Below, one piece after another: positions 2,012 through 53,822 of a stretch of DNA of 64,000 nt (position 1 is the first letter of the stretch; each line of letters starts with the position of its first letter). The position numbers and the translations under genes were made by a program. The notes below the pieces were generated by a model. It had not been told where the DNA came from, did not search any database, and saw only the letters and a list, made by a program, of their open reading frames with translations. The stretch is from Candidatus Omnitrophota bacterium (GTDB taxonomy: Bacteria; Omnitrophota; Gorgyraeia; Tantalellales; Tantalellaceae), in NCBI GenBank assembly GCA_034723315.1, contig JAYEOV010000035.1, positions 8,329-72,328 on the forward strand, read 5' to 3'.

Positions 2012-3285
2012 TTACATGTCGGGGATCTGGCTGGAGTCGGCTTTGGAAGATCTTGAAACATAACATGTAAAATTATATTTCACATATCGCACGCCGGGTT
2101 TGATGTTAATGACCCCTGTTTCCTTTCCAATTTTAAAAAGGATAACTATCATGAAGATCAAGAATGTAATGAGGCCTAAAAACGACTTTTTACCTGATGA
2201 GCGTGCTCGAAGGACAGCAATTATACTGGGCAAGATCCCAAAGAGTACCGCTATTCCCAACGCGCCTACCATATCAAGAGCCGTAAGGAATATTTTCGGA
2301 AAGATAAGCGTCACTATGAGCGGCGGTCCGAAAGATAACAGGACTATAAGCAACCTGTTCGACTTTTTGAAATAGTTTGTCAAAAAATCGTCTATAAACT
2401 CCATAAGACCGTATCCGTTGGTGAGATATGAAGTTATTATCGCAAGGAGAGCAAACAGCAGCGAAAATGTAATAAATGCCGGTGATCCTATGATCTGCGA
2501 TAACGGCACGGTGGACGGTAAGTTATTCTGAAAAGCCTCTGTTATGCTTATATTGCCATCGATCGGAAGCGCGCCTAAGCTGACCTGAACCCAAAGGGCC
2601 GTTATAGCATATCCTGCGAGAACACCTATAAGCATTGATGTTAATATAGCGGGTCGCCTCCACCCGAGATCCTTACAAATGTTCGGAATAATGTTATGAA
2701 AGCTTAGCGCGGTTATCAGGACCGGAACGGTACAAGGCAGGAATTTCCAGTCCATGTAACGAAGGCGTTCGGGTCTATATGTTTTTCTGCCATAATTACA
2801 AGAACAGCGAAAGACAACCACAATAAGATCACGAACAAAGCAGTATAGTTCTTAAGTAAGCGCGGATTCATTATGGTGAGCCCCGTGATTATTACAAAAA
2901 ATGTTAAAGTAACTACGACTCCGGGGACGGGAATGGCGATCAGATCTTTTATGATAATTGTGGCACCTGAAAGATAAACCATAAGAAAACCGTAAAAGAT
3001 TATAAGATTTGATATGACAGCGATCCATTTACCCGTAGAACCCAGGTAGGCCTGGTAAAGGCTTGGATAATGGAATTTGGGGTTCCTGGTCATGATCGCC
3101 TCATTCCCTAACGTAACTGCTGTAAAGAACAGAGCCGCTCCTATCAAAAGAATACCTAAAATGGAAGGGATAAATCCGGCAAAACCTGCTTGTATAGGCA
3201 AGCCTAAAATTCCCGCGCCGACAAGATTCCCTGTAATAAAAAAGGCCATCAATATTACTGTTAAAAAAGCAGGCTTTTCATTCAT
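2012..3285 (-). pseudogene. HAAAP-family aromatic amino acid (Tyr/Trp) permease, frameshifted
   Basis: Two overlapping ORFs (2716..3285 and 2012..2821) in different frames. Together they give a ~420-aa TyrP/Mtr/TnaB-like permease (N-term GAGILGLP motif). The frame switch is near 2765-2790. Confidence 0.55.
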
Positions 3286-15891: not shown

Positions 15892-16181
15892 CATTATTGA
15901 ACACTCTCAAATTGGTCCAAAACTTTATGCAAAACGCGGAAGTCGGGTTAACAATCTCTTACCGTAATGAAGTAATGTTAAATTTACAATAGATAGAATA
16001 ATCCCCTTGTATATTAATAATGTTAAGGTATAGTTAATATGTTGATATTAAATGTATTTGGCTTTGTAATTTTTTACAAATTTATTAAAGGTTTGCTTAG
16101 AAGAAGAAAACAGCCTTGAAGATTTATTTTTTGGTTTTTAAAAAGTTTTTGAAAATGCCGAAACTAAAAAGGCGAATTACG

Positions 16182-17420
16182 ATGAACAAAACAAGAACAA
16201 AGAACAATGGGTTTGCCATGGCGGTCATGGCAGTAATGGTTGTCCTGGTCATGGCATGGGTGGTGATCATAACGCCTGTCCCGCGAGCGCATGCCGACGA
16301 ATGGGTAACGCGGCAAATATCGGATAATACGTATATTGACGCCGAGCCATCTCTTTATAACGGCACCATAGCCTGGGTGCACCATATACCCGCGGGAGAC
16401 TGGCAGCAACGTCATATCTACTACTGGGACGGGACCTCAACCACGCAGATAACGCCGTATGAGAAGTCGACCTACGAAGAGCCATCTCTTTATAACGGCA
16501 AGATAGCTTGGAGGGATGGTTATGTCTACTACTGGGACGGGACCTCAACCACGCAGATGCCGATTCCGGGGGGTGGTCAGCACTCCCCGTCACTTTATAA
16601 CGGCAAGATAGCCTACATTGTCGGAGGCGGTGTATTTGATGTCCACTACTGGGACGGGGGTACGGCTACAAATATATCTAATAATACGGCTGGTACTTGG
16701 TCCGGGTCCCCATCACTTTATAACGGCACCATAGCCTGGCAAACCTGGCAGGATGGTGGTTACGGTATCAACTACTGGGACGGGGGTACGACTACACAGA
16801 TATCCGTTAGTGGCGCCAACCCGTCACTTTATAACGGGACGATAGCCTGGGCGGACAATGGTATCAACTACTGGGACGGGGGTACGACTACACAGATATC
16901 CGTTAGTGGCGCCAACCCGTCACTTTATAACGGGACGATAGCCTGGGCGGGCAATGGTATCAACTACTGGGACGGGGGTACGACTACACAGATATCAGGC
17001 AGTGGCACCAACCCGTCACTTTATAACGGCGATATAACCTGGCAAGGCTCGGATGGTAATGATGATGAGATCTTTTACGCGCGGCTGGCGTCGGCGTGGA
17101 TAGGTGACGCGATAGACTCACTCGGCCTGGCAGGATACACAGAAGCGGAGATACTTGATCTTGCGGACCTGTTCAGTGGTCAGACTTCCGGTCTGGTAAA
17201 CAGCATGGACTGGACATACCTGGCAGGGAACCTTCCGGGAGATACAGGGGGCGAGGTCTATGACATAGGAAACAGCTGGGAATATGACGGTAAATACTAT
17301 ATCAAGCTGGGGAGCGGGCTTGAAGGAACCGGAGTACCTGAGCTGCCGGCAGGCGCGATACCGTTTATCGGTGCGATCTTGTGTTTTGGATTAAGACGGT
17401 TAAGACGTTTTCACAAATAA
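16182..17420 (+). CDS. Tandem-repeat secreted protein with variant PEP-CTERM-like sorting tail
   Basis: Signal peptide; ~9 repeats of PSLYNG[TK]IAW...YWDG[TG]TTTQI; C-terminus VPELPAGAIPFIGAILCFGLRRLRR (PEL-P + TM + basic cluster). Start at the internal Met (MNKTRTKNNGFAMAVMAV) instead of track 16116. Confidence 0.6.
   Translation: MNKTRTKNNGFAMAVMAVMVVLVMAWVVIITPVPRAHADEWVTRQISDNTYIDAEPSLYNGTIAWVHHIPAGDWQQRHIYYWDGTSTTQITPYEKSTYEEPSLYNGKIAWRDGYVYYWDGTSTTQMPIPGGGQHSPSLYNGKIAYIVGGGVFDVHYWDGGTATNISNNTAGTWSGSPSLYNGTIAWQTWQDGGYGINYWDGGTTTQISVSGANPSLYNGTIAWADNGINYWDGGTTTQISVSGANPSLYNGTIAWAGNGINYWDGGTTTQISGSGTNPSLYNGDITWQGSDGNDDEIFYARLASAWIGDAIDSLGLAGYTEAEILDLADLFSGQTSGLVNSMDWTYLAGNLPGDTGGEVYDIGNSWEYDGKYYIKLGSGLEGTGVPELPAGAIPFIGAILCFGLRRLRRFHK
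16764..17045 (+). repeat. 3 x 96-bp near-identical tandem DNA repeats inside the repeat-protein gene
   Basis: Units 16764..16859 and 16860..16955 differ at ~1 position; the third unit is diverged. Confidence 0.7.
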
Positions 17421-19243: not shown

Positions 19244-19906
19244 TTATACTAAGAAGAAAAATCCTGCCAGCATCATTGCTACCTTTGCGGCGGTAGTGAG
19301 ACCTGTTACTACAACAGATCCGACTGTATCCCATGTTTGTTTTATGTTGTCCCTTCGCTTACGTTCACCTTCGACTGAGTAAAACGCGGTCAGTTGTATT
19401 ATTTCAAGTGTAGTCTTATTGTCGGCTGTTGAGGAAATTTCTTCATTTTTTTCCGTTTCCGGCGTGTTCGTAAAGGACCAGTAAACCTTTCCTGCGGCAT
19501 CCATTGTTTCTTCGGCATTTACATCGTCAGTGTCTTTTTTCATGCGTTCTTCGCTCAAGGAATTATAAAAACTCAGAAGTTCATCATCGGTCCATTTATC
19601 CAGCTCGACCTTTTTGTATGGCTTCTCCAGGACCAGTGATTCCTCTATAAGTTTAGATCGGCGGGACTTCAGGGCGATCATAAAGGCCGTTACCGTTATA
19701 TCTTTAGCGGTCTTGTCAATTTGTGTTTGCACAGGTTCATTATATATCCGGTGAAAGAGTATGAGCGCTTGTTCATCGTTAAGTCCCTTGAAATGCATCT
19801 TATTCACAGCGCTGCCCATATGACCATATTTCATGGAAGTGGCGGCACATCCGGACGCCCCGATACATATCAGGATCAACAGAAGTATTTTGATCTTCTT
19901 CAGCAT
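19244..19906 (-). CDS. Lipoprotein with C-terminal TM anchor (paralogue of 34972..35526)
   Basis: Lipobox GASGCAAT; shared motifs KVELDKWTDDELLSFYNSL and RRDNIKQTWDTV with the second copy. Confidence 0.5.
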   Translation of the reverse strand: MLKKIKILLLILICIGASGCAATSMKYGHMGSAVNKMHFKGLNDEQALILFHRIYNEPVQTQIDKTAKDITVTAFMIALKSRRSKLIEESLVLEKPYKKVELDKWTDDELLSFYNSLSEERMKKDTDDVNAEETMDAAGKVYWSFTNTPETEKNEEISSTADNKTTLEIIQLTAFYSVEGERKRRDNIKQTWDTVGSVVVTGLTTAAKVAMMLAGFFFLV

Positions 19907-26388: not shown

Positions 26389-26488
26389 TATGAAAGAAGT
26401 GATGAAGAAGAAGACGACATTTATACTTATCGCCGCCATGATCTGTTTTCAGATTAACGGCATGGTCGGGTTTTGCCCAGTACATTAC

Positions 26489-26606
26489 TAGAACCCATTT
26501 CATAACCCCGTTCGTTACGAGGCTGAGCGAAAAGGCCATTGACAAGGCCTGAGGGGCAAAATGCCCGGAAACGTAGCCGTTGCGCTACGTTGATGATATT
26601 TTGTCC
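26489..26606 (+). mobile_element. MITE-like element copy (left TIR + core, right end truncated)
   Basis: AGAACCCATTTCATAACCCCGTTCGTTACGAGGCTGAGCGAAAAGGCCATTGACAAGGCCTGAGGGGCAAAATGCCCGGAAACGTAGCC...GCTACGTTGA core shared with the 48573 copy. Confidence 0.55.
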
Positions 26607-30546: not shown

Positions 30547-31293
30547 CTAGTTTTTCAAGAACATTTTTACAGAGAAGAAAATTACAAAAAAGCCGAAAAT
30601 GTAGCGAAGTGTAACAGGCGTTAACATGTTCGACAGTATGGCTCCCAGGATCGCTCCCAGAAGTGATGCGGGGATCAGAAATCTTACCGCCCTGCGGTCG
30701 ATATTATTGAGTTTCGCGTGAAATATGGCACCGGCCGCTGAAGTCGGGACTATAACGGTAAGGGATGTTGCGATGGCCTGGTGCATTTGAAATCCGAAGA
30801 AAAGATCAAGCGACGGGACCATTATGGCGCCTCCGCCGATACCGAAAAGAGCCGATGATATACCCGCGATAAGGCCCAATATTACGAAAAAGGGATACGA
30901 GTTTATGCTCAGGACGCTCTCTGTGGGGATCCTTATAAGTCCGACCTGTTTCAGGCCAACGAAGAGAAGAAGCGCGGCGAACAGGACCCTGATCAGATCT
31001 CCTCTGATCCTGTCCGCGATGGCCGCCCCGATTTTCGCACCGGCGACCGATCCGAGAATGATGAACAAAGCGGAAATGAACAGTATATTGTCGCTGTTCA
31101 GAATATAGTGAGTGCTCACCCCGACAAGAGCCGCGGGGACTATTGTCGTGAGGGATGTGCCTACGGCTTTCTTTATGTCATAGTCCAGCAAAAGGACCAG
31201 GGACGGGACCATTACAACGCCCCCGCCGATACCTAAAAAGGCGCTGCCGAAACCCGCGAAGAAACCCAGGATAAGGAGATAGGAGTTTTTCAT
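30547..31293 (-). CDS. TauE/SafE (DUF81) family sulfite/anion exporter
   Basis: 248 aa, two internal repeats each with GIGGG(VI)(VM)(VM)P motif. Confidence 0.75.
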   Translation of the reverse strand: MKNSYLLILGFFAGFGSAFLGIGGGVVMVPSLVLLLDYDIKKAVGTSLTTIVPAALVGVSTHYILNSDNILFISALFIILGSVAGAKIGAAIADRIRGDLIRVLFAALLLFVGLKQVGLIRIPTESVLSINSYPFFVILGLIAGISSALFGIGGGAIMVPSLDLFFGFQMHQAIATSLTVIVPTSAAGAIFHAKLNNIDRRAVRFLIPASLLGAILGAILSNMLTPVTLRYIFGFFVIFFSVKMFLKN

Positions 31294-31609
31294 TTGGCTC
31301 TTTAATAACCTGTAAGGATCAAAACCCGTGCGGTTCTTTTTTTATTCAGTTTGCGGACACTTTGTTCGCGAGGCGCCTCATCCACATCGTTGTCACCATG
31401 GCGAGTAACCTGGAAGATGCGTTTTTCAAGACCGGCTGCTTTCGGGTTTTATTATACAGTATACCAGGAGCTGTAAAAAGAAATAATTTCTGGCGGCGTG
31501 ATGAATTGCGGGCTGCGGCAAGCCCCTCTCACCGCGCTGAAAGAGGGGCCTTCCTTTATAATCGGAGTAAAGTTCCACGGACTTACGTCCGCGGAACTTT
31601 AAAGGTGCA

Positions 31610-32110
31610 TTAGAACCTTTCCCTGAACCTTCCCCAGTGAGATTTCCGGCCGTGATCGCGCCGGTGGTGTTTTCTTTCCTCTTTGAGTTCCATGAACTCC
31701 TCGAACTGATCGGGGGTCAAGATCTTTTTCATGTCCAGGAAGTTATCCACCCTTTGATCTATCTGTTTCGCCTGCAGCTTTTTCATGTCGGATACGACCC
31801 TTTTTATTTTTTTTCTGCTGGAGTAGGTTTCCTGCAGCTCTTCGCTGAGATCATGGCGTGTATCTCTCAGTTCTTCCATCAGAGCTTTCATCATTTCCCT
31901 GTTCTCCCGGCGGAGTTCTTTGAGCTGTTCTCTTTGTTTTGGGGACAGGTCAAGCCTTTCCGATATCTTGTCGAATATCTCCGATCTTCGAGCGTTCATT
32001 CCTTCCGGACCGTCCCCGCCATAGGATGGTTGCGAATATGCCGCCGGAGCCGCGCACAGAACCGTGATCACAGCCAGGATGACCGACAATTTCAATACCG
32101 TGTTCTTCAT
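31610..32110 (-). CDS. Periplasmic LTXXQ-motif protein (Spy/CpxP family)
   Basis: Signal peptide, coiled-coil, LTPDQ motif; paralogue of 9204..9641. Confidence 0.6.
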   Translation of the reverse strand: MKNTVLKLSVILAVITVLCAAPAAYSQPSYGGDGPEGMNARRSEIFDKISERLDLSPKQREQLKELRRENREMMKALMEELRDTRHDLSEELQETYSSRKKIKRVVSDMKKLQAKQIDQRVDNFLDMKKILTPDQFEEFMELKEERKHHRRDHGRKSHWGRFRERF

Positions 32111-32236
32111 TTTTTCCTCCTTCTTTTTGTCTTTCTCAATTCTGTCCCTTCACTGCTGGATCCCCGCTTCCGCGGGGATTAAATTCGCATTATGATTTAC
32201 TCTCATTTCAATCGCGTAAATCATGTGCTCATTTAA

Positions 32237-32265
32237 CTTAGACAGAAGGAGATCCAAAATAGTTC
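32237..32265 (-). promoter_or_regulatory. ECF sigmaE-type promoter GGAACTA-N16-GTCTAA
   Basis: Minus strand GGAACTAttttggatctccttctGTCTAA upstream of the LTXXQ gene 31610..32110. Confidence 0.5.
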
Positions 32266-32271
32266 CCTCTA

Positions 32272-32287
32272 TGAACCCATTTCATAA
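32272..32287. repeat. Solo MITE terminal inverted repeat (GAACCCATTTCATAAC)
   Basis: Identical to the left TIR of the element family; overlaps the stop codon of the anti-sigma gene. Confidence 0.45.
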
Positions 32288-32767
32288 CAAAAAATCCTCC
32301 ATCGGGATGCCTATATCCGTATAAGAGCCGTTCTCCCGGTCCCCGTTGTTTAGCGCGTCAATGAATGAGAGCTGTTCCTCAAGATACATGTTAAGCGAGG
32401 CCCTGTCGAAGAGGTACGTCCTGGCGACTAATGCCGCTATAACGATAAGTATGGATGCCGTCAGCACGGCGAACGCGGGTTTTCTCTCAGCAAGGATCTC
32501 CCGGAGGCGCTCTCTTAAACCGGAGAGCGGGCTCTCGGGCCGGTTCGCCTCAATGACGCCTTTTATGCCGTGCCAGGTCTCTTCAGGGGGCTGCAGGCGC
32601 TCCGCTCTCTTCAGTGGATCCACGGCTGCGTCACGGACGATCTGCAGCAACTCCCCGCAACGGGGACACGACCTTATGTGGTCTTCGACGACCTTCCTCT
32701 GACCGGGATCAAGTTCTCCGTCTATGTAGTCTGTCAGGATCATTTTCCGTATTTTTCCGCATTTCAT
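32282..32767 (-). CDS. Zinc-finger (zf-HC2) anti-sigma factor, membrane-spanning
   Basis: HIRSCPRCGELL motif near N-term, single TM helix, 4-nt overlap with the upstream ECF sigma gene. Confidence 0.6.
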   Translation of the reverse strand: MKCGKIRKMILTDYIDGELDPGQRKVVEDHIRSCPRCGELLQIVRDAAVDPLKRAERLQPPEETWHGIKGVIEANRPESPLSGLRERLREILAERKPAFAVLTASILIVIAALVARTYLFDRASLNMYLEEQLSFIDALNNGDRENGSYTDIGIPMEDFLL

Positions 32768-32769
32768 GG

Positions 32770-33318
32770 CTACCCCCTTTTCCGGTATCGGGAGATAAGT
32801 TTTTCACGGGCTCTCTTGAGCCTGGTCCTTACCGTATTTATCTTTATGTTAAGGGTCTCGGCGATCTCTTCATACTTCAACCCCTCGATCTCTTTCAGTA
32901 CCAGACATGCTCTCTGCTCGTCGGGCAGGCTGTTCAGCATGGACCTTACAAGATCCTGGCTGTGTTCTTTTTCAAGCAGGTCCGTTCCGGTTTCTTGAAC
33001 GGGTCCGGCGTCTATCGCGTCATCGAAAGCGACCGTTCTCGCGCGCTCTTTTGACCTTTTCCTGTATACGTTGATCGCCTTGTTCGTGGTTATCCTGTAT
33101 ATCCAGGTCTTGAAAGAGGACTTGAACCGGAATTTCGAGAGGTTCCTGTAAACGCTCACGAAAACGTCCTGGGTAACTTCCTGAGCGTCCTCCCTTCTGC
33201 CTGTAACCCTGAAAGCTATTGTATATACGTAGCCGGAGGCCCTTCTGTATATCTCTTCAAAAGCGTGCATATCGCCTTCAGACGCTTTTATTATTATTTC
33301 CTCTGGTATCGGCTGCAT
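32770..33318 (-). CDS. ECF (sigma-24/sigmaE-like) RNA polymerase sigma factor
   Basis: Region 2 (DMHAFEEIYRR...YVYTIAFRVTG) and region 4 HTH (YEEIAETLNIKINTVRTRL). Start is reassigned to the internal ATG because the promoter -10 lies inside the track ORF N-term (track 32770..33351). Confidence 0.8.
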   Translation of the reverse strand: MQPIPEEIIIKASEGDMHAFEEIYRRASGYVYTIAFRVTGRREDAQEVTQDVFVSVYRNLSKFRFKSSFKTWIYRITTNKAINVYRKRSKERARTVAFDDAIDAGPVQETGTDLLEKEHSQDLVRSMLNSLPDEQRACLVLKEIEGLKYEEIAETLNIKINTVRTRLKRAREKLISRYRKRG

Positions 33319-33334
33319 TTTCCCCTCTATTATA

Positions 33335-33363
33335 TTAGACAAAGGGAGCATCGAAAAAGTTCC
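33335..33363 (-). promoter_or_regulatory. Autoregulatory ECF sigmaE-type promoter GGAACTT-N16-GTCTAA
   Basis: Minus strand GGGAACTTtttcgatgctccctttGTCTAAtataatagaggggaaaATG; classic sigmaE spacing. Confidence 0.55.
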
Positions 33364-33402
33364 CCGGTAGTGCGTATTATATCATACGCACCCCGCTTTT
33401 CT

Positions 33403-33700
33403 AGAAGCCATTTCATAACCCGGTTCGTAACGAGGCTGAGCGAAAAAGCCTTTAGCCCTTCGACTCAGGCCCCGGCTTTAGCCGGGGCCTTCGCTCCCTT
33501 CGGCTTCGCTCAGGGCAAGCAGGATTCCGCCCCACCCGGGCGGTAAGGGTGGTGCCCCGGGTTTGCCGGGGGCTCCACAAAGCCTGAGCGGCAAAAAGCC
33601 CGGAAACGTAGCCCCAATCTGCTACGTTGAGGACTTTTTGCTGCGAAAACGCAGCTAACGGCTTTTGCAGCCAGCCGCAGTAGAACAGGGTTTTGTAGTT
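33403..33700 (+). mobile_element. MITE-like element, long variant (~300 bp) with GC-rich insert module
   Basis: Left TIR AGAAGCCATTTCATAACCCGGTTCGTAACGAGGCTGAGCGAAAAAGCC..., internal CCGGAAACGTAGCC...CTACGTTGA hairpin, right end TTTTGCAGCCAGCCGCAGTAGAACAGGGTT. Confidence 0.55.
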
Positions 33701-33715
33701 CGCAGTTACAGGGAG

Positions 33716-33976
33716 ATGACACACGAGATCTGGGAGGATAAGGATCGCACGAAATTGAGAGATAACCGGAAGGTTTTTAAACTGTTTCGCGAAGGGCTCG
33801 AGCCGCTCATACAGGAAGGAAGACTCGGGTGCGTGCTCCTGCAGTTCCCCTATTTTTTTCTGTCCAACCGGGATAATTTTGATTACCTTCAGAGATGCAG
33901 GGACAGTCTTGCCGGAGTAGATGCCGTAGTTGAATTCAGGAACAGGTCGTGGGTAAAGGAACGGACCTTCGAGTGA
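33716..33976 (+). pseudogene. DUF72 (YecE-like) family protein fragment
   Basis: Only the central/C-terminal LGCVLLQFPYFF ... AVVEFRNRSW region is present, ~85 aa of a ~250-aa family. It begins at the MITE edge and ends prematurely. Confidence 0.4.
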
Positions 33977-33980
33977 TAAG

Positions 33981-34088
33981 TAGAAGTTCTGGGGACACGC
34001 CTGTTATAGGCGATAAGCAGACACTACTGAAGTTCCGGGGACACGCTTGTTGTATATGCCTATTTTGCTCGCCCAAGCATGTCCCCGG
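33981..34088 (+). repeat. Structured ~110-bp repeat element (family 2), copy 1
   Basis: Contains 2 x GAAGTTC[TC]GGGGACACGCYTGTT plus inverted CATGTCCCCGG. About 80% identical to the reverse complement of 44792..44905. Confidence 0.5.
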
Positions 34089-34240
34089 AATATATTTTTA
34101 TACATAACCGATAACAGATAACCCATAACCGAGATACCCATAGCGAGCATACGTGCACAATACGAGATACCCAAAGCGAGCAAACACGCACCATACCCGG
34201 CACCCAAAACCAGACTTTGCGCCTGCTTCAACATCCACCC

Positions 34241-34971: not shown

Positions 34972-35526
34972 TTATATCGCTGCTAAAGCTACGTTCAAAG
35001 CCACGACCAGAACCTGCGCCAACACGTTCCAGGCCTGCCGCGTGTTACTCCTTTTTCGCAATTCTGATACGACCGCGCTCATGCCTGTCAGGCGGACTAT
35101 CCTTGCGGCGTTTTCCCTGTCGGAAAGTTCGGACACGGGTTTGAGGTAGTGCGCCGATACCTTGGGTTCCAAAGCGTTGTAAACCGCCAGAAGGTCATCG
35201 TCGTTCCAGTTTTTAAGCTCCACTTTTTCATGGGCAAGTCCGAATACCCCGGAATTTTTCAGATAGGCGGACTTTCTTTTCCCGAGGGTCTCCATGAACC
35301 TGGAAATGGTTATGTTCTTCGCCACGCCGTCCTCGAAGGTTTCCGCGGGAACGTTGAAGATCATCACGATCATCATAAGGGCATGTTCGTCGTCGAGTTC
35401 CGCAAATGTCTTGTATTCCTTCCCTTCCAGCTTGTAACCGTAGTGGTGTTTTGTCGTGGCGCATCCCGATAAAAGGGCGCAGAGACAAAAAAATAAGATG
35501 ATAAAACTGTTCTTCTTCAGTTCCAC
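34972..35526 (-). CDS. Lipoprotein with C-terminal TM anchor (paralogue of 19244..19906)
   Basis: Lipobox LLSGCATT; KVELKNWNDDDLLAVYNAL and RKRSNTRQAWNVL motifs shared with the other copy; immediately downstream of the secretin-like gene. Confidence 0.5.
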   Translation of the reverse strand: MELKKNSFIILFFCLCALLSGCATTKHHYGYKLEGKEYKTFAELDDEHALMMIVMIFNVPAETFEDGVAKNITISRFMETLGKRKSAYLKNSGVFGLAHEKVELKNWNDDDLLAVYNALEPKVSAHYLKPVSELSDRENAARIVRLTGMSAVVSELRKRSNTRQAWNVLAQVLVVALNVALAAI

Positions 35527-35550
35527 TGGAAAAGTCCATGCAAAAAACGT

Positions 35551-36381
35551 TTACTCTGAAACGGTCGCCGTAACGAACATAATGACCGTTCTATATTTTT
35601 CGGCCCCCCTTAGAGGCACGGATACTCCCAAAGGCGTTACGCCCGCCTGTTCAAGGCGCCGTTCCACCCTGTCCATTCCGCCTATAGCGATGGTATCGCC
35701 GCTGTTGATCACCACCTGTGTGATGACGGACCTTTCGTATATGCTGTGGTCTTTGCGGATCTCCCCGATGGCCGGCCTCAGGATCATGGTGATCGAACCG
35801 TCGTTATTCACCCTGGGCAGGACTTCAAGGATGTTCCCGACGGGTTTTCTGTCGACCCAGTTGACGCCTATATTGCCTTTATCCGTTATGATCGTTCTGG
35901 GGAAGACCTCTTTGAGGGCGACCTGTGTCCTTGCGGGCTCGCCGCTGAGCGTCTTTACCGTCATCTGTGTGCGGATATCCGCGGATTCGCTTTTACTCAG
36001 CAGCCAGAAGATCTCATCGAACCTCTCCGGGGGAATGACGCTCTGACCGGCGTCTAATCCCGCCTCACCCATAAGGGTATCGGTCATTTCCACGACAAGA
36101 AGTTTTATCTCGACCTGTTTTCGCGGATTGTCAAGCCGGTCCAGCACTTTCCGGATATGTCTCAAGTTGGCCGGGTAATCGCGGACGATCAGGCTGTTGG
36201 TGGCAGAGTGAAGTGTGGTCTTCCCCTCTTTGCTGTTGAGATGGACTACTGCCGGGTAAATAGATACGGCGTCACCATGCTGTATCTTGAAGACCTCGAC
36301 CTGAAGGTCTTCGGAACCGGCGGATGCCGGAGGAGCCGTGATAAAAAAGGATATTATTATGATAAAAAGTGTTTTTCGCAT
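35551..36381 (-). CDS. Minimal secretin-family protein (NolW-like N domain + secretin C domain, 276 aa)
   Basis: Signal peptide; N domain ...NSLIVRDYPANLRHIRKVLDRLDNPRKQVEIKLLVVEM; C domain SVITQVVINSGDTIAIGGM...VTPLGVSVPLRG resembling the secretin core. Confidence 0.5.
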   Translation of the reverse strand: MRKTLFIIIISFFITAPPASAGSEDLQVEVFKIQHGDAVSIYPAVVHLNSKEGKTTLHSATNSLIVRDYPANLRHIRKVLDRLDNPRKQVEIKLLVVEMTDTLMGEAGLDAGQSVIPPERFDEIFWLLSKSESADIRTQMTVKTLSGEPARTQVALKEVFPRTIITDKGNIGVNWVDRKPVGNILEVLPRVNNDGSITMILRPAIGEIRKDHSIYERSVITQVVINSGDTIAIGGMDRVERRLEQAGVTPLGVSVPLRGAEKYRTVIMFVTATVSE

Positions 36382-36394
36382 GATTAGCGGCTAT

Positions 36395-36565
36395 CAACAA
36401 ACTTCCCTGCAGCTTGCTGCGGGGAAGTTTACCCCGCACCGAACCGCATTGGGTTCGGGGTTCTCGTCCCGTACCCAAAGTGGTACGGGAGATTCCGCCC
36501 TACAAGTGGAATCCCGCAGAAAAAGGAGCCGCGGACTCAAGTCCGCGGGACTCCATCCGATCAAC
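36395..36565 (-). repeat. MITE-related internal module, inverted orientation, no recognisable TIRs
   Basis: GATTCCGCCCTACAAGTGGAATCCCGCAGAAAAAGGAGCCGCGGACTCAAGTCCGCGGGACTCC matches the reverse complement of the insert in copy 42657..42838. Strong hairpin GGAGCCGCGGACTCAAGTCCGCGGGACTCC. Confidence 0.45.
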
Positions 36566-37160
36566 CGGTTTGTTCTTTTTTTCTGAACAGAAACCCGAAA
36601 ACCTTTTTAAGAGAACGGAACATGACTTTCAGGAACCATATCGAGAAAACAATAAAGGACAATACCAGCAGGCCGGCTATTACGGGGTGCTTGGCCACCA
36701 GCCATAATGCTACCAGGACAAAACTGTCCTCAGCGACGCTGGCAATAATGTTCGTTACAGGTTCAGGTGAGGTGTTTATGGCAACTCGCGCGGTGGCCTT
36801 TGTAAGATGCGAGTCTAACGCCACCACCCCGCAGATCAGGGCTACGGAAAGCTGAACGGATTCGTTCGATCCGGACATGGCCATGAAAGCCAGAAGCGCG
36901 GCGCCTGCCGGCCTTACCATTGTATGAAAGGAATCCCAGGCCGAGTCAACATACGGGATCTTATCCGCGAAGAACTCAATGATAAAAAGAAGCAATGCTA
37001 CCGTTATTATAATGGGATTTGATAAGACATCAAGTTTCCCGGGCAGGTCGATAAATCCAAGCCTGTCAGCTATGCCCAGTACCGCAATAGTAAGATAAAG
37101 GTTAATGCCGGAAGCCCAGGACCCGCCTAATATCATCCCGATATTGCTTAAAGTATTCAT
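36561..37160 (-). CDS. DUF4126 family membrane protein
   Basis: 199 aa, MILGGSWASGINLYLTIAVLG N-terminus and 4-5 TM pattern typical of DUF4126. Confidence 0.5.
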   Translation of the reverse strand: MNTLSNIGMILGGSWASGINLYLTIAVLGIADRLGFIDLPGKLDVLSNPIIITVALLLFIIEFFADKIPYVDSAWDSFHTMVRPAGAALLAFMAMSGSNESVQLSVALICGVVALDSHLTKATARVAINTSPEPVTNIIASVAEDSFVLVALWLVAKHPVIAGLLVLSFIVFSIWFLKVMFRSLKKVFGFLFRKKEQTG

Positions 37161-41420: not shown

Positions 41421-41467
41421 CCCCGTTCGTTACGAGGCTGAGCGAAAAGGCCATTGACAAGGCCTGA
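41421..41467 (+). repeat. MITE core fragment (CCCCGTTCGTTACGAGGCTGAGCGAAAAGGCCATTGACAAGGCCTGA)
   Basis: Identical to the core of copies at 26489 and 48573; no TIRs. Confidence 0.5.
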
Positions 41468-42606: not shown

Positions 42607-42656
42607 TAATCTTTTTTATAAAAAAGCCAATTTTAACCTTTATTATTATTGACTAT

Positions 42657-42838
42657 AACCCCGTTCGTTACGAGGCTGAGCGAAAAAAGCATTGACAAGG
42701 CCTGAGGGGTGGAGCCCCGCGGACTGAAGTCCACGGCTCCTTTTTCTGCGGGATCTCACCTGTAGGGCGAAATCCCGAAAACGCAGCCAATGGGTTTTGC
42801 AGCCAGCCGCAGTAAAACAGGGTTATGAAATGGGTTCT
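42657..42838 (+). mobile_element. MITE-like element copy (left TIR missing, right TIR intact)
   Basis: Core CCCCGTTCGTTACGAGGCTGAGCGAAAAAAGCATTGACAAGGCCTGAGG, GC-rich hairpin insert, right end TTTTGCAGCCAGCCGCAGTAAAACAGGGTTATGAAATGGGTTCT. Confidence 0.55.
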
Positions 42839-44767: not shown

Positions 44768-44791
44768 CGTAAACCTCATTGTTTTGTTAAA

Positions 44792-44905
44792 AATATATTC
44801 TGGGGACATGCCTGGGCGAGCAAAATTAGCGTCTACAACAGGCGTGTCCCCGGAACTTCATCAATGCCATAGTGTCGTCTGCAACAAGCGTGTCCCCAGA
44901 ACTTC
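44792..44905 (-). repeat. Structured ~110-bp repeat element (family 2), copy 2 (inverted relative to copy 1)
   Basis: ATATATTCTGGGGACATGCCTGGGCGAGCAAAAT...CAACAGGCGTGTCCCCGGAACTTC...CAACAAGCGTGTCCCCAGAACTTC. Confidence 0.5.
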
Positions 44906-48029: not shown

Positions 48030-48581
48030 TTATATATTACGCCCCTCTTTTTTGGCCTTTATATATTCCGGAGGCACATTTTTTGCAAGGAATAGTTTTC
48101 CTTCCCTGTAGAACTTTATATCTTTAAGGGCCGCCTCTTTTGCCATTACCTCCAGAATAACCGGAGTCTGAGCATGCCGCATGCCGACCATGTATGCATC
48201 TTTCTCGTTCGAGCTGAGATGGACGAACTGCCTGCTCATGGGCTTCAGGCCTTCTGCAAGAATCTTTTCAAGATCTTCCGGAGATGTTCCGTGATAGAGA
48301 ACTTCCGGAGGTATTATACTTTCCGAGCCGGGCCGGACTTCGAGGGAATGGCCGTAAGTGGCCCTTATCTTTTTTGCCGAGACCTCAAAACGCCCTTTCG
48401 GTTCATTTTTTACGAGTTCAAAAAGGTCCTCTTCCTTAAACTTCCTGAATCTTTTCCTGAGGACCCGCAGGACATCGGCTAACGGGGCGTACCCACACCC
48501 GTCCAGCTCAAGATCCCAGCTGCCGGGATCATGACGAAGTATATATGACAGGAACTTGCTCAGTTTTATCTTAGAAACCAT
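48030..48581 (-). CDS. kptA: RNA 2'-phosphotransferase KptA/Tpt1
   Basis: SKFLSYILRHDPG...LDG.GYA N-terminus, YHGTS, VHLS motifs. The start codon lies inside the MITE left TIR. Confidence 0.75.
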   Translation of the reverse strand: MVSKIKLSKFLSYILRHDPGSWDLELDGCGYAPLADVLRVLRKRFRKFKEEDLFELVKNEPKGRFEVSAKKIRATYGHSLEVRPGSESIIPPEVLYHGTSPEDLEKILAEGLKPMSRQFVHLSSNEKDAYMVGMRHAQTPVILEVMAKEAALKDIKFYREGKLFLAKNVPPEYIKAKKEGRNI

Positions 48582-48752
48582 TTCATAACCCGGTTCGTAA
48601 CGAGGCTGAACGAAAAAGTCATTGACAAGGCCTGAGGGGCAAAATGCCCGGAAACGTAGCCGGTGCGCTACGTTGAGGACATTTTACCCCGAAAACGCAG
48701 TCAATGACTTTTGCAGCCAGCCGCAGTAGAACGGTGTTATGAAATGGTTTCT
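48573..48752 (+). mobile_element. Complete MITE-like element (180 bp) with 17-19-bp terminal inverted repeats
   Basis: Left AGAAACCATTTCATAACCC; right GGTGTTATGAAATGGTTTCT; core GGTTCGTAACGAGGCTGAACGAAAAAGTCATTGACAAGGCCTGAGGGGCAAAATGCCCGGAAACGTAGCCGGTGCGCTACGTTGA. Confidence 0.65.
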
Positions 48753-52771: not shown

Positions 52772-53158
52772 TTATCCCGATATAAGAGCCTTTATCTCTT
52801 CTTCCGTCATGTCCTTTTTTCTGAGGAAACATATCCCGACATCATATGATTTGCCGGGCTCCCCCTCTGCAATACGGACCACGCGGCCGAAGATCCCGCT
52901 GTTGTGAATGATCAGATCGTCTTCTATCTCAGCGCATATGTTCATCATGCGATCGTCCAGCTCCAGCCAGACGATACTTGACAGCGCCGGTATGGAAAAC
53001 TCCGTGGATGTCCTGAAAAGCAGACCGCACGCGCTGATGTTTCGTGACGATATATCGGACTTCTGCGCGAGTTTATCTCCTGTAAGAACTTTACAATTCA
53101 AAGGTTTCTCATAATCGACCCTGAGAAATTCCCGTTTTTCTTCAAAGTCAGCATTCAT
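52772..53158 (-). CDS. PilZ domain c-di-GMP-binding protein
   Basis: REFLR (RxxxR) and NISACG (D/NxSxGG) motifs. Start is reassigned to MNADF (SD AGGAGGA 7 nt upstream), 1 nt after the LOG stop; track ORF 52772..53197. Confidence 0.6.
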   Translation of the reverse strand: MNADFEEKREFLRVDYEKPLNCKVLTGDKLAQKSDISSRNISACGLLFRTSTEFSIPALSSIVWLELDDRMMNICAEIEDDLIIHNSGIFGRVVRIAEGEPGKSYDVGICFLRKKDMTEEEIKALISG

Positions 53159-53159
53159 C

Positions 53160-53822
53160 TTATAATCCTCCTGTCTTGTCATAGAATTTATCCACATAAT
53201 CGACTATCTTCTTTGGATCGTCTATTACCGTGAATAGTTTCATGTCGTTTTCGTCTATGGCTCCGAGCTTCATACAGGAGCTTTTCAGCCAGTCCAGCAT
53301 TCCTTTCCAGTAGGCCTTGCCTACAAGGACCACGGGAAAAGGTTCCATCCTCTCGGTCTGTATCAGGGCAACCATTTCAAAAAATTCATCCAGGGTCCCG
53401 AACCCGCCTGGAAAGGCTATAAACGCTTTGCTGTACTTCGCGAACATCAATTTACGCACGAAGAAATACCTGAACTCCAGGGGGATCGTAACGTACCTGT
53501 TGAACTTCTGTTCAAGAGGTATGGTTATATTGAGCCCTATCGATTCCCCGCCGGCCTTCTTCGCGCCCATATTGGCCGCTTCCATGATCCCCTCCCCGGC
53601 CCCGGTGAGAACCGCGTATCCGTCTTTAGCGAAAAGCTCGGCGGTCTTTCTCGCCATTGGATAATACTTATGGGACTTTTTCAGACGGGACGAGCCGAAT
53701 ATGCTAACAGCCTTCCCTATGCTTCTCAGGGACTCGAAACCGTCGACGAACTCGCTCATTATCCGGAACACCCGCCAGGGTTCTTCAATGGGATGATCGT
53801 GCATTATACTTTTTTCTTTCAC
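53160..53822 (-). CDS. LOG family protein (TIGR00730; cytokinin riboside 5'-monophosphate phosphoribohydrolase-like)
   Basis: AVSIFGSSR and PGGFGTLDEFFE motifs. Confidence 0.75.
   Translation of the reverse strand: MKEKSIMHDHPIEEPWRVFRIMSEFVDGFESLRSIGKAVSIFGSSRLKKSHKYYPMARKTAELFAKDGYAVLTGAGEGIMEAANMGAKKAGGESIGLNITIPLEQKFNRYVTIPLEFRYFFVRKLMFAKYSKAFIAFPGGFGTLDEFFEMVALIQTERMEPFPVVLVGKAYWKGMLDWLKSSCMKLGAIDENDMKLFTVIDDPKKIVDYVDKFYDKTGGL

Follow-up and report, generated by a model that had tools for sequence, protein, structure and literature searches.

A solitary gene of Omnitrophota encodes a conserved mini-secretin with a single N domain

The window analysed here is a stretch of 64,000 nucleotides (nt) from a Candidatus Omnitrophota bacterium (GTDB lineage Bacteria; Omnitrophota; Gorgyraeia; Tantalellales; Tantalellaceae), taken from contig JAYEOV010000035.1 of the NCBI GenBank assembly GCA_034723315.1 (positions 8,329 to 72,328 of the forward strand). 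Its reverse strand carries a gene for a small protein of 276 amino acids (aa), which we call the mini-secretin. The gene is preceded by a structured spacer and followed by the gene of a predicted lipoprotein (Table 1). The mini-secretin is intact, conserved and encoded by a solitary gene; it belongs to a known superfamily, with an architecture that is new relative to the literature searched. Full-text searches of a limited library found no paper describing a secretin of such a minimal kind.

The gene product and its family

Both its domains and its fold identify the 276-aa product as a genuine member of the secretin family. Its N-terminus, MRKTLFIIIISFFITAPPASA-GSED, was read by eye as a Sec signal peptide with cleavage before GSED. 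The Pfam model Secretin_N (PF03958) matches residues 28-89 with 38.6 bits (cut-off 28.2, E 1.3e-9), and the Secretin model (PF00263) matches residues 128-252 with 52.4 bits (cut-off 27.5). A profile search of the PDB retrieved XcpQ (E 7e-31) and PilQ of several species, and the NCBIfam models of GspD, PilQ, HofQ, SctC and MshL also match, all far under their cut-offs. The AlphaFold2 (AF2) model of the monomer has an overall predicted local distance difference test score (pLDDT) of 75.9, and comprises a beta-alpha-beta-beta-alpha N domain at residues 27-83 (pLDDT 91-96) followed by the strand hairpins of the secretin core. The secretin fold with its inner-barrel gate hairpins is present, and the N domain aligns with both N1 and N3 of XcpQ. 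A preliminary description of the locus had proposed this open reading frame (ORF), with its coordinates and signal peptide, as a secretin, and all of these stand, with both Pfam domains scoring above the gathering cut-offs. It had also called the protein far smaller than known secretins, in agreement with its 276 aa and with the 249-310 aa of its full-length relatives. The "short secretin core" of that description is indeed compact; however, it is complete to the last strand, and its compactness comes from the missing beta-lip.

When 5.8 billion proteins were searched by word index, an identical protein (P0001) turned up in an NCBI metagenome-assembled genome named Candidatus Omnitrophota, together with 24 further full-length homologues of 267-291 aa and 33-49% identity; the next matches were ordinary secretins, with an E value of 1e-8. 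The family was then delimited by an exhaustive profile search of 1.84 billion representatives, whose matches were re-scored with a profile of the secretin domain only. At least 64 clusters at 50% identity belong to it and score 105-292 bits on this profile, whereas all secretins outside the family reach at most 67 bits, which gives a clean split. Full-length proteins are found in 58 of the 64 clusters (249-310 aa, median 274.5). The sources name the members as Omnitrophota and some Verrucomicrobiota, and annotate them in generic terms, as "secretin N-terminal domain-containing protein" or "GspD". Every member has exactly one N domain, and the first 40 residues are free of lipobox-like motifs in all 84 family sequences. 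A C-terminal tail is absent, except in a Verrucomicrobiota subgroup with 39-44 extra residues. Residues G182, L185, V187, P189, V191, D194 and G234-G235, which form part of the canonical inner-barrel and gate motifs, are invariant across the alignment. The mini-secretins are a discrete, conserved, full-length and lineage-specific family. A PADLOC defence scan returned nothing for the secretin or the lipoproteins.

Architecture and comparison with known secretins

The core of the mini-secretin runs from the first outer strand through a helix, the Gate 1 loop (residues ~155-182), the LxVxPxVxxD strand, Gate 2 and the glycine pair GG234-235 to the final strand VIMFVTATV. The inner-barrel and gate motifs are retained throughout the family. 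The variable segment 158-179, which is modelled with low confidence and bounded by the invariant G182, probably represents the Gate 1 loop; this loop varies among the mini-secretins, and its first hinge glycine is not conserved. Aromatic residues are kept in the "TDxFL" stretch (the F) and at the near-invariant F269, and they appear comparable in position to the aromatic girdles of pIV.

Other parts of an ordinary secretin are missing. Neither PF21305 nor STN (PF07660) matched the mini-secretin in a Pfam search at E values up to 1, so no N0 domain was found; two control proteins, P0139 and P0031, both show N0. Just ~5 residues separate the signal-peptide cleavage site from the N3 domain. In the alignment with XcpQ, query residues 54-109 correspond to XcpQ 292-347 and query residues 115-273 to XcpQ 393-569, so that 45 XcpQ residues (348-392) face only 5 query residues (110-114), and this is the main deletion. 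When the mini-secretins were aligned in MAFFT with five canonical secretins, represented by their C-terminal parts, a gap of 35-62 residues appeared in the mini-secretins right after the "QVxIE...LGIxW" strand. A second gap of ~7 residues in the same alignment takes out the second half of the VPxLGDIPxLGxLF motif, which we take to be the amphipathic helical loop (AHL). The S domain is also absent, as judged from the alignments and from the lack of a C-terminal tail. In pIV of phage f1 residue 175 is the first of the secretin domain and residues 199-234 form the beta-lip (PMC8563730), and because the main deletion of the mini-secretin matches this position, it is placed at the lip. Beta-lips measure 36 residues in phage secretins, 51-60 in secretins of the type II secretion system (T2SS) and ~80 in cap-gate secretins (PMC8563730).

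The mini-secretin is thus predicted to consist of a signal peptide, N3, a lipless barrel and both gates. Compared with ordinary secretins, the alignments indicate that it is without N0, N1, N2, the beta-lip, half of the VPxLGDIPxLGxLF motif and the S domain. N0 and N3 are common to all secretins, and the S domain is the pilotin-binding part (PMC8563730). Two features that published comparisons call general to secretins, N0 and the lip, are therefore both missing from the mini-secretins.

By sequence, the closest of the known secretins is GspD/XcpQ (PDB 5wln), which is also the top NCBIfam match (TIGR02517); the alignment of XcpQ with the mini-secretin takes in N3, the gate motifs, GGL and the final strand. 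However, the score is 78.1 bits against a cut-off of 351.35, which is too low to call the protein a GspD, and the N0-N1-N2-N3 series, the lip of 51-60 residues, the pilotin-binding S domain and the gsp operon of GspD are all absent. PilQ (TIGR02515), the second-best NCBIfam match, resembles the mini-secretin in having no S domain. The mini-secretin differs from it in its score (72 bits, cut-off 284.35), in having no N0 or AMIN domain, and in the absence of pilMNOP genes from all loci. RcpA of the Tad system (PDB 8odn), the product of a tad operon, has a VirB9-like N domain and depends on TadD, a lipoprotein with tetratricopeptide repeats (TPR) (PMC10499894). Unlike RcpA/CpaC, the mini-secretin has Secretin_N and Secretin domains only, with no TadA-type Walker A motif or Flp nearby and with an adjacent lipoprotein that has no TPR. 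Among the best structural matches is pIV of phage f1 (PDB 7ofh), in which N0 and a linker (residues 1-107) couple the protein to pI/pXI, and which has a beta-lip of 36 residues and a secretin domain of 231 residues (PMC8563730). In the mini-secretin, by contrast, N0 is missing, the lip is essentially absent and the core spans ~187 residues; its gene is chromosomal, with no phage genes near. By scores, N-terminal domains and genomic context, the mini-secretin falls outside GspD, PilQ, RcpA and pIV.

The same profile search also retrieved giant secretins, in ~70 clusters of 2500-5532 aa (e.g. P0031, P0048, P0052, P0079 and P0112). P0031 (3491 aa, MCG3198724.1) has a GspD N0, 25 Secretin_N domains and one C-terminal Secretin domain, and one cluster of partial giant-secretin copies is named Candidatus Omnitrophica by NCBI. 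The giants belong to the same superfamily and represent its opposite extreme, their secretin domains scoring 30-67 bits on the profile of the mini family. Stacked as rings, their N domains would form an extremely long periplasmic conduit. A "split secretin", whose N domains come from a separate protein, was also considered and rejected, as the N-domain-only candidates are partial ORFs of giant secretins. With mini forms on one side and giants with 25 N domains on the other, these phyla stretch the secretin architecture much further than model organisms do.

Table 1. Features of the mini-secretin locus and related genes of the window (positions in the window)
Feature	Position	Strand	Details and basis
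Mini-secretin gene	35551..36381	-	ATG start, 276 aa, stop codon 35551-35553
Putative Sec signal peptide, residues 1-21 (MRKTLFIIIISFFITAPPASA/G)	36319..36381	-	By eye from the translation
Single ring-building N domain, N3-like, residues 28-89	36115..36300	-	PF03958
Compact secretin core, residues 90-276	35554..36114	-	PF00263, family invariants, alignments, fold matches
Structured spacer upstream of the secretin gene, 179 nt	36382..36560	-	Hairpin, repeat, folding compared with shuffled controls
Lipoprotein, short subfamily, 184 aa	34972..35526	-	GTG start; 24 nt downstream of the secretin gene
Paralogous lipoprotein, long subfamily, 220 aa (P0182)	19244..19906	-	BLASTP
Extracytoplasmic function (ECF) sigma factor	32770-33351	-	Pfam
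zf-HC2 anti-sigma factor	32282-32767	-	Pfam
LTXXQ/CpxP-like protein	31610-32110	-	Pfam

Genomic context and possible function

Genomic context was sampled in the window, in 17 further non-redundant and well-flanked mini-secretin loci, and in 10 loci on metagenome contigs, mostly short. The mini-secretin gene is solitary in all of them. The window ORFs of at least 120 aa encode, according to Pfam, transporters, enzymes of sugar/nucleotide metabolism, a large sensor kinase, and AsmA/DUF748, DUF4126 and DUF2062 proteins. The same Pfam search, which left a few ORFs unscanned, found among them no ATPase, pilin or platform protein of a T2SS, type IV pilus or Tad system. Walker A motifs of the T2SSE/PilB/TadA type and prepilin/Flp motifs were absent from all window ORFs (taken from stop to stop) and from 37 loci. 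All-versus-all BLASTP of the flanking ORFs detected no neighbour family common to four or more of 18 loci, and among 89 proteins within three genes of the secretin Pfam found no type IV filament family, with scattered housekeeping families instead. Among the large neighbours, which were C39-peptidase giants, a GGDEF-STAND protein and GH77, none was recurrent. The lack of nearby ATPase, pilin and platform genes noted in the preliminary description therefore holds in the window and in every related locus sampled.

Two kinds of neighbour were seen more than once. In two genomes (L004, 2944-7848; L012, 5294-9769) a protein of ~1500-1630 aa, with an internal Peptidase_C39 domain and apolipoprotein-like helical repeats, is encoded divergently beside the mini-secretin. 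Genes related to cyclic di-GMP (c-di-GMP), encoding PilZ, STAS-PilZ and a 1295-aa GGDEF-STAND protein, lie a few kb from mini-secretins in L001, L005, L007, L017 and L020; this recurrence may reflect just their commonness in the phylum. The window ORF at 52772-53197 has a PilZ match of 21 bits, under the cut-off of 22.5 bits.

The gene downstream of the mini-secretin encodes, as first described, a lipoprotein on the same strand after a gap of 24 nt. Its predicted lipobox is LLSG/C, with G21 and C22 invariant in its family. The product and that of 19244..19906 are true paralogues, both with a lipobox (30% identity, E 5e-29 by BLASTP). This second gene had been regarded as its only relative, which is true within the window; the databases, however, hold a family of 24 proteins, recovered by profile search, with subfamilies of ~185-193 aa and ~215-227 aa. 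All named members are Omnitrophota. No Pfam or NCBIfam domain and no TPR was found in the lipoprotein, and its AF2 model, a weak one (pLDDT 64), has no fold match in the PDB at E <=0.001. The other mini-secretin loci (17 well-flanked, 10 metagenome) encode no homologue of it, the best chance match having an E value of ~0.2-1, and four other lipoprotein loci (L008, L023, L024 and L025) encode no secretin. The adjacency of the two genes is seen in the window only. The 24-nt gap contains no terminator-like site, and co-transcription of the two genes is plausible from their arrangement.

Homologues of the lipoprotein are found in a different company. The closest named one, of Ca. Tantalella remota (54% identity), lies 60 bp upstream of an ECF sigma gene, and the order continues with a zf-HC2 anti-sigma factor, an LTXXQ protein, DUF4126 and TauE. 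The same gene set recurs in the window at 30547-33351 and 36561-37160. In L023 the anti-sigma and LTXXQ genes are 3-5 kb from the lipoprotein homologue, and in the window, L008 and L023 taken together the ECF sigma/anti-sigma/LTXXQ module is 60 bp to ~5 kb from it. Between the lipoprotein gene of the window and the sigma gene lie an NTPase_1 gene and an 890-bp stretch, in which short interspersed repeats and a DUF72 fragment occur. This fragment, a 103-aa ORF at 33665-33976 (forward strand), matches positions 49-127 of the 217 positions of the DUF72 model. The repeats and the DUF72 fragment between the NTPase and ECF sigma genes suggest a local rearrangement. We judge that the short lipoprotein subfamily tends to adjoin the ECF sigma module, and that its adjacency to the secretin is incidental. 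The lipoprotein would then belong with an envelope-stress sigma-factor neighbourhood and would have come to stand beside the secretin here by rearrangement.

Once exported, the mini-secretin may form a 12-15-mer, a double-walled beta-barrel in the outer membrane that has a central gate, under which would lie a single periplasmic ring of N3 domains; we infer this oligomerisation, location and gating from homologous secretins and from the monomer model. It would sit shallowly in the membrane because it has no lip. N0 is the docking site for GspC/PilP (PMC10499894), and since N0 is absent, the usual docking of this type to an inner-membrane platform is not expected. Our preferred reading, to which we give about an even chance, is that the mini-secretin serves as the portal through the outer membrane of a type IV filament machine (a type IVa pilus, Tad or T2SS-like system) whose genes lie elsewhere and whose filament would push the gate open from below. 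This portal is favoured because type IVa and Tad pili are commonly encoded by Omnitrophota (PMC10066038). The evidence on linkage, for or against filament machines, is at the level of the locus, in the window and the sampled loci. Several points weigh against the portal. The oligomer, its location and its gating rest on homology and on a monomer model of moderate confidence, in which pLDDT falls below 50 in the Gate 1 loop and at residues 237-261. Canonical coupling is impossible without N0. pilQ and gspD normally lie inside their operons, and linkage of the mini-secretin to pilus or secretion genes was found in 0 of at least 18 loci, which is unusual for a component of such a machine. There is also a small chance that the secretin and lipoprotein families have an older link, seen in a shared slot: L005 and L025 are syntenic (DAO, Pyr_redox, DUF1667, Zn-ribbon) up to LemA and then differ, with a mini-secretin after LemA in L005 (7444-8831) and DUF3137 plus a long-subfamily lipoprotein in L025 (4447-6672). 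The two families take the same slot, yet they do not co-occur. Finally, the N0-bearing giant secretins of some Omnitrophota could serve the filament machines instead. If giants serve the canonical machines, the mini-secretin could be a self-contained, large-bore channel of the outer membrane, gated or partly open, which takes up or releases macromolecules without any filament machine; this explanation thereby stays alive, and we consider it possible, though somewhat unlikely. The gene being solitary in the 17 well-flanked and 10 metagenome loci, the missing docking site for GspC/PilP, and the variable Gate 1 loop with its unconserved first hinge glycine all agree with it. However, the gate and inner-barrel motifs are strongly conserved, which suggests that the gate has to be opened by something; type IV pili and Tad systems abound in Omnitrophota; and loose gene order alone could account for a solitary gene. 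We also know of no secretin that works alone. That mini-secretins are self-sufficient pores, without N0 or lip, which assemble without a pilotin and run without a type II, type III or type IV pilus machine, is a tentative proposal that we would sooner doubt than accept.

The preliminary description had suggested a possible stand-alone channel with the co-transcribed lipoprotein as a pilotin-like partner. The common strand, the 24-nt gap without a terminator-like site and the predicted lipoprotein nature of the downstream product are as such a pair would have them, and so is the post-LemA slot occupied by the secretin in L005 and by the lipoprotein family in L025. The pilotin is nonetheless unsupported, because conserved linkage is absent (0/17 well-flanked, 0/10 metagenome and 0/4 other lipoprotein loci), the secretin has no S domain, and the lipoprotein has neither a TPR nor any other Pfam domain. 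The lipoprotein also finds no fold match in the PDB, albeit from a weak model, and its homologues tend to adjoin the ECF sigma module instead. We regard this pairing, in which the channel would need the lipoprotein for its assembly or targeting, as highly improbable, and as largely refuted by the absence of conserved linkage. It is likewise improbable that the oligomer does not breach the outer membrane and acts as a periplasmic or membrane-associated scaffold. The deletion of 35-62 aa at the lip and the shortened VPxLGDIPxLGxLF motif would fit such a ring, since how deeply known secretins insert into the membrane is determined by the lip and the AHL (PMC10499894). However, RcpA is still a channel, with a minimal lip lying flush with the barrel, and this channel extends mainly into the inner leaflet (PMC10499894). 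The aromatics at positions that seem to be those of the pIV girdles (the F of TDxFL and F269) are also kept. Least probable of all, to a degree that we would discard it, is that the gene is a decayed full-length secretin or a pIV-like derivative of a filamentous phage. Its small size and the presence of pIV among the best structural matches point in this direction, as do tblastn matches in a phage collection, just weak ones to Vibrio filamentous phages (inoviruses, 26-27% identity). The 58 full-length clusters, in contrast, have the same architecture, signal peptides and invariant motifs, no relative was found among 2.9 million viral contigs, and no mini-secretin locus has phage genes. A phage origin is rejected on the result from the viral contigs and on the weakness of the matches in the phage collection. 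Because the family is conserved and the gene intact, it is not a pseudogene, and the truncated remnant that the preliminary description had allowed for is ruled out; family conservation refutes decay and phage origin alike for practical purposes.

To our knowledge, every secretin studied so far has at least ~400 residues and is coupled to an inner-membrane machine through its N-terminal domains. A mature protein of ~255 residues with just N3, a double barrel and gates would define the minimal secretin unit. Such a protein would be well suited to asking how a secretin that has no lip, pilotin site or lipid anchor can oligomerise and insert into the membrane, and whether a secretin can function apart from an inner-membrane machine. 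It would also bear on how the envelope of the uncultured, ultra-small Omnitrophota is organised. If the channel did work without a machine, these ultra-small, host-dependent bacteria would own a large-bore gated channel of a new functional class.

Upstream spacer, repeats and other window features

The 179-nt spacer upstream of the mini-secretin gene folds more stably than shuffled controls (z = -5.4). It has a terminator-like hairpin (36548-36529, reverse strand) followed by a T-run, located after the DUF4126 gene, which suggests that the secretin gene opens a new transcription unit. The hairpin lies within a 65-bp repeat (36491-36555), of which a single inverted copy, 88% identical to it, is present at 42710-42774. 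A module related to miniature inverted-repeat transposable elements had been proposed at 36395..36565; just the 65-bp stretch with its inverted copy was borne out, and the rest was not confirmed. No Rfam family was matched anywhere in the window.

Short interspersed intergenic repeats of 24-110 bp, with 85-96% identity, are present at 33352-34240 of the window, and further copies are found at 26488-26578, 41425-41448, 42655-42824, 44788-44905 and 48572-48732. The 65-bp repeat upstream of the secretin gene and its inverted copy belong to these repeats as well. On the reverse strand at 2012-3285, a Trp/Tyr permease is split into overlapping ORFs, of which 2716-3285 corresponds to positions 8-175 of the profile and 2012-2821 to positions 175-385; the split reflects either a frameshift that has left a pseudogene or a mistake in the assembly. 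On the forward strand, 16116-17420 encodes a protein of 434 aa without a Pfam match, which contains repeats of the type "PSLYNGxIAW...YWDGxxTTQIS". Read by eye, it ends in a hydrophobic segment followed by RRLRR, similar to a sorting tail of the PEP-CTERM type.

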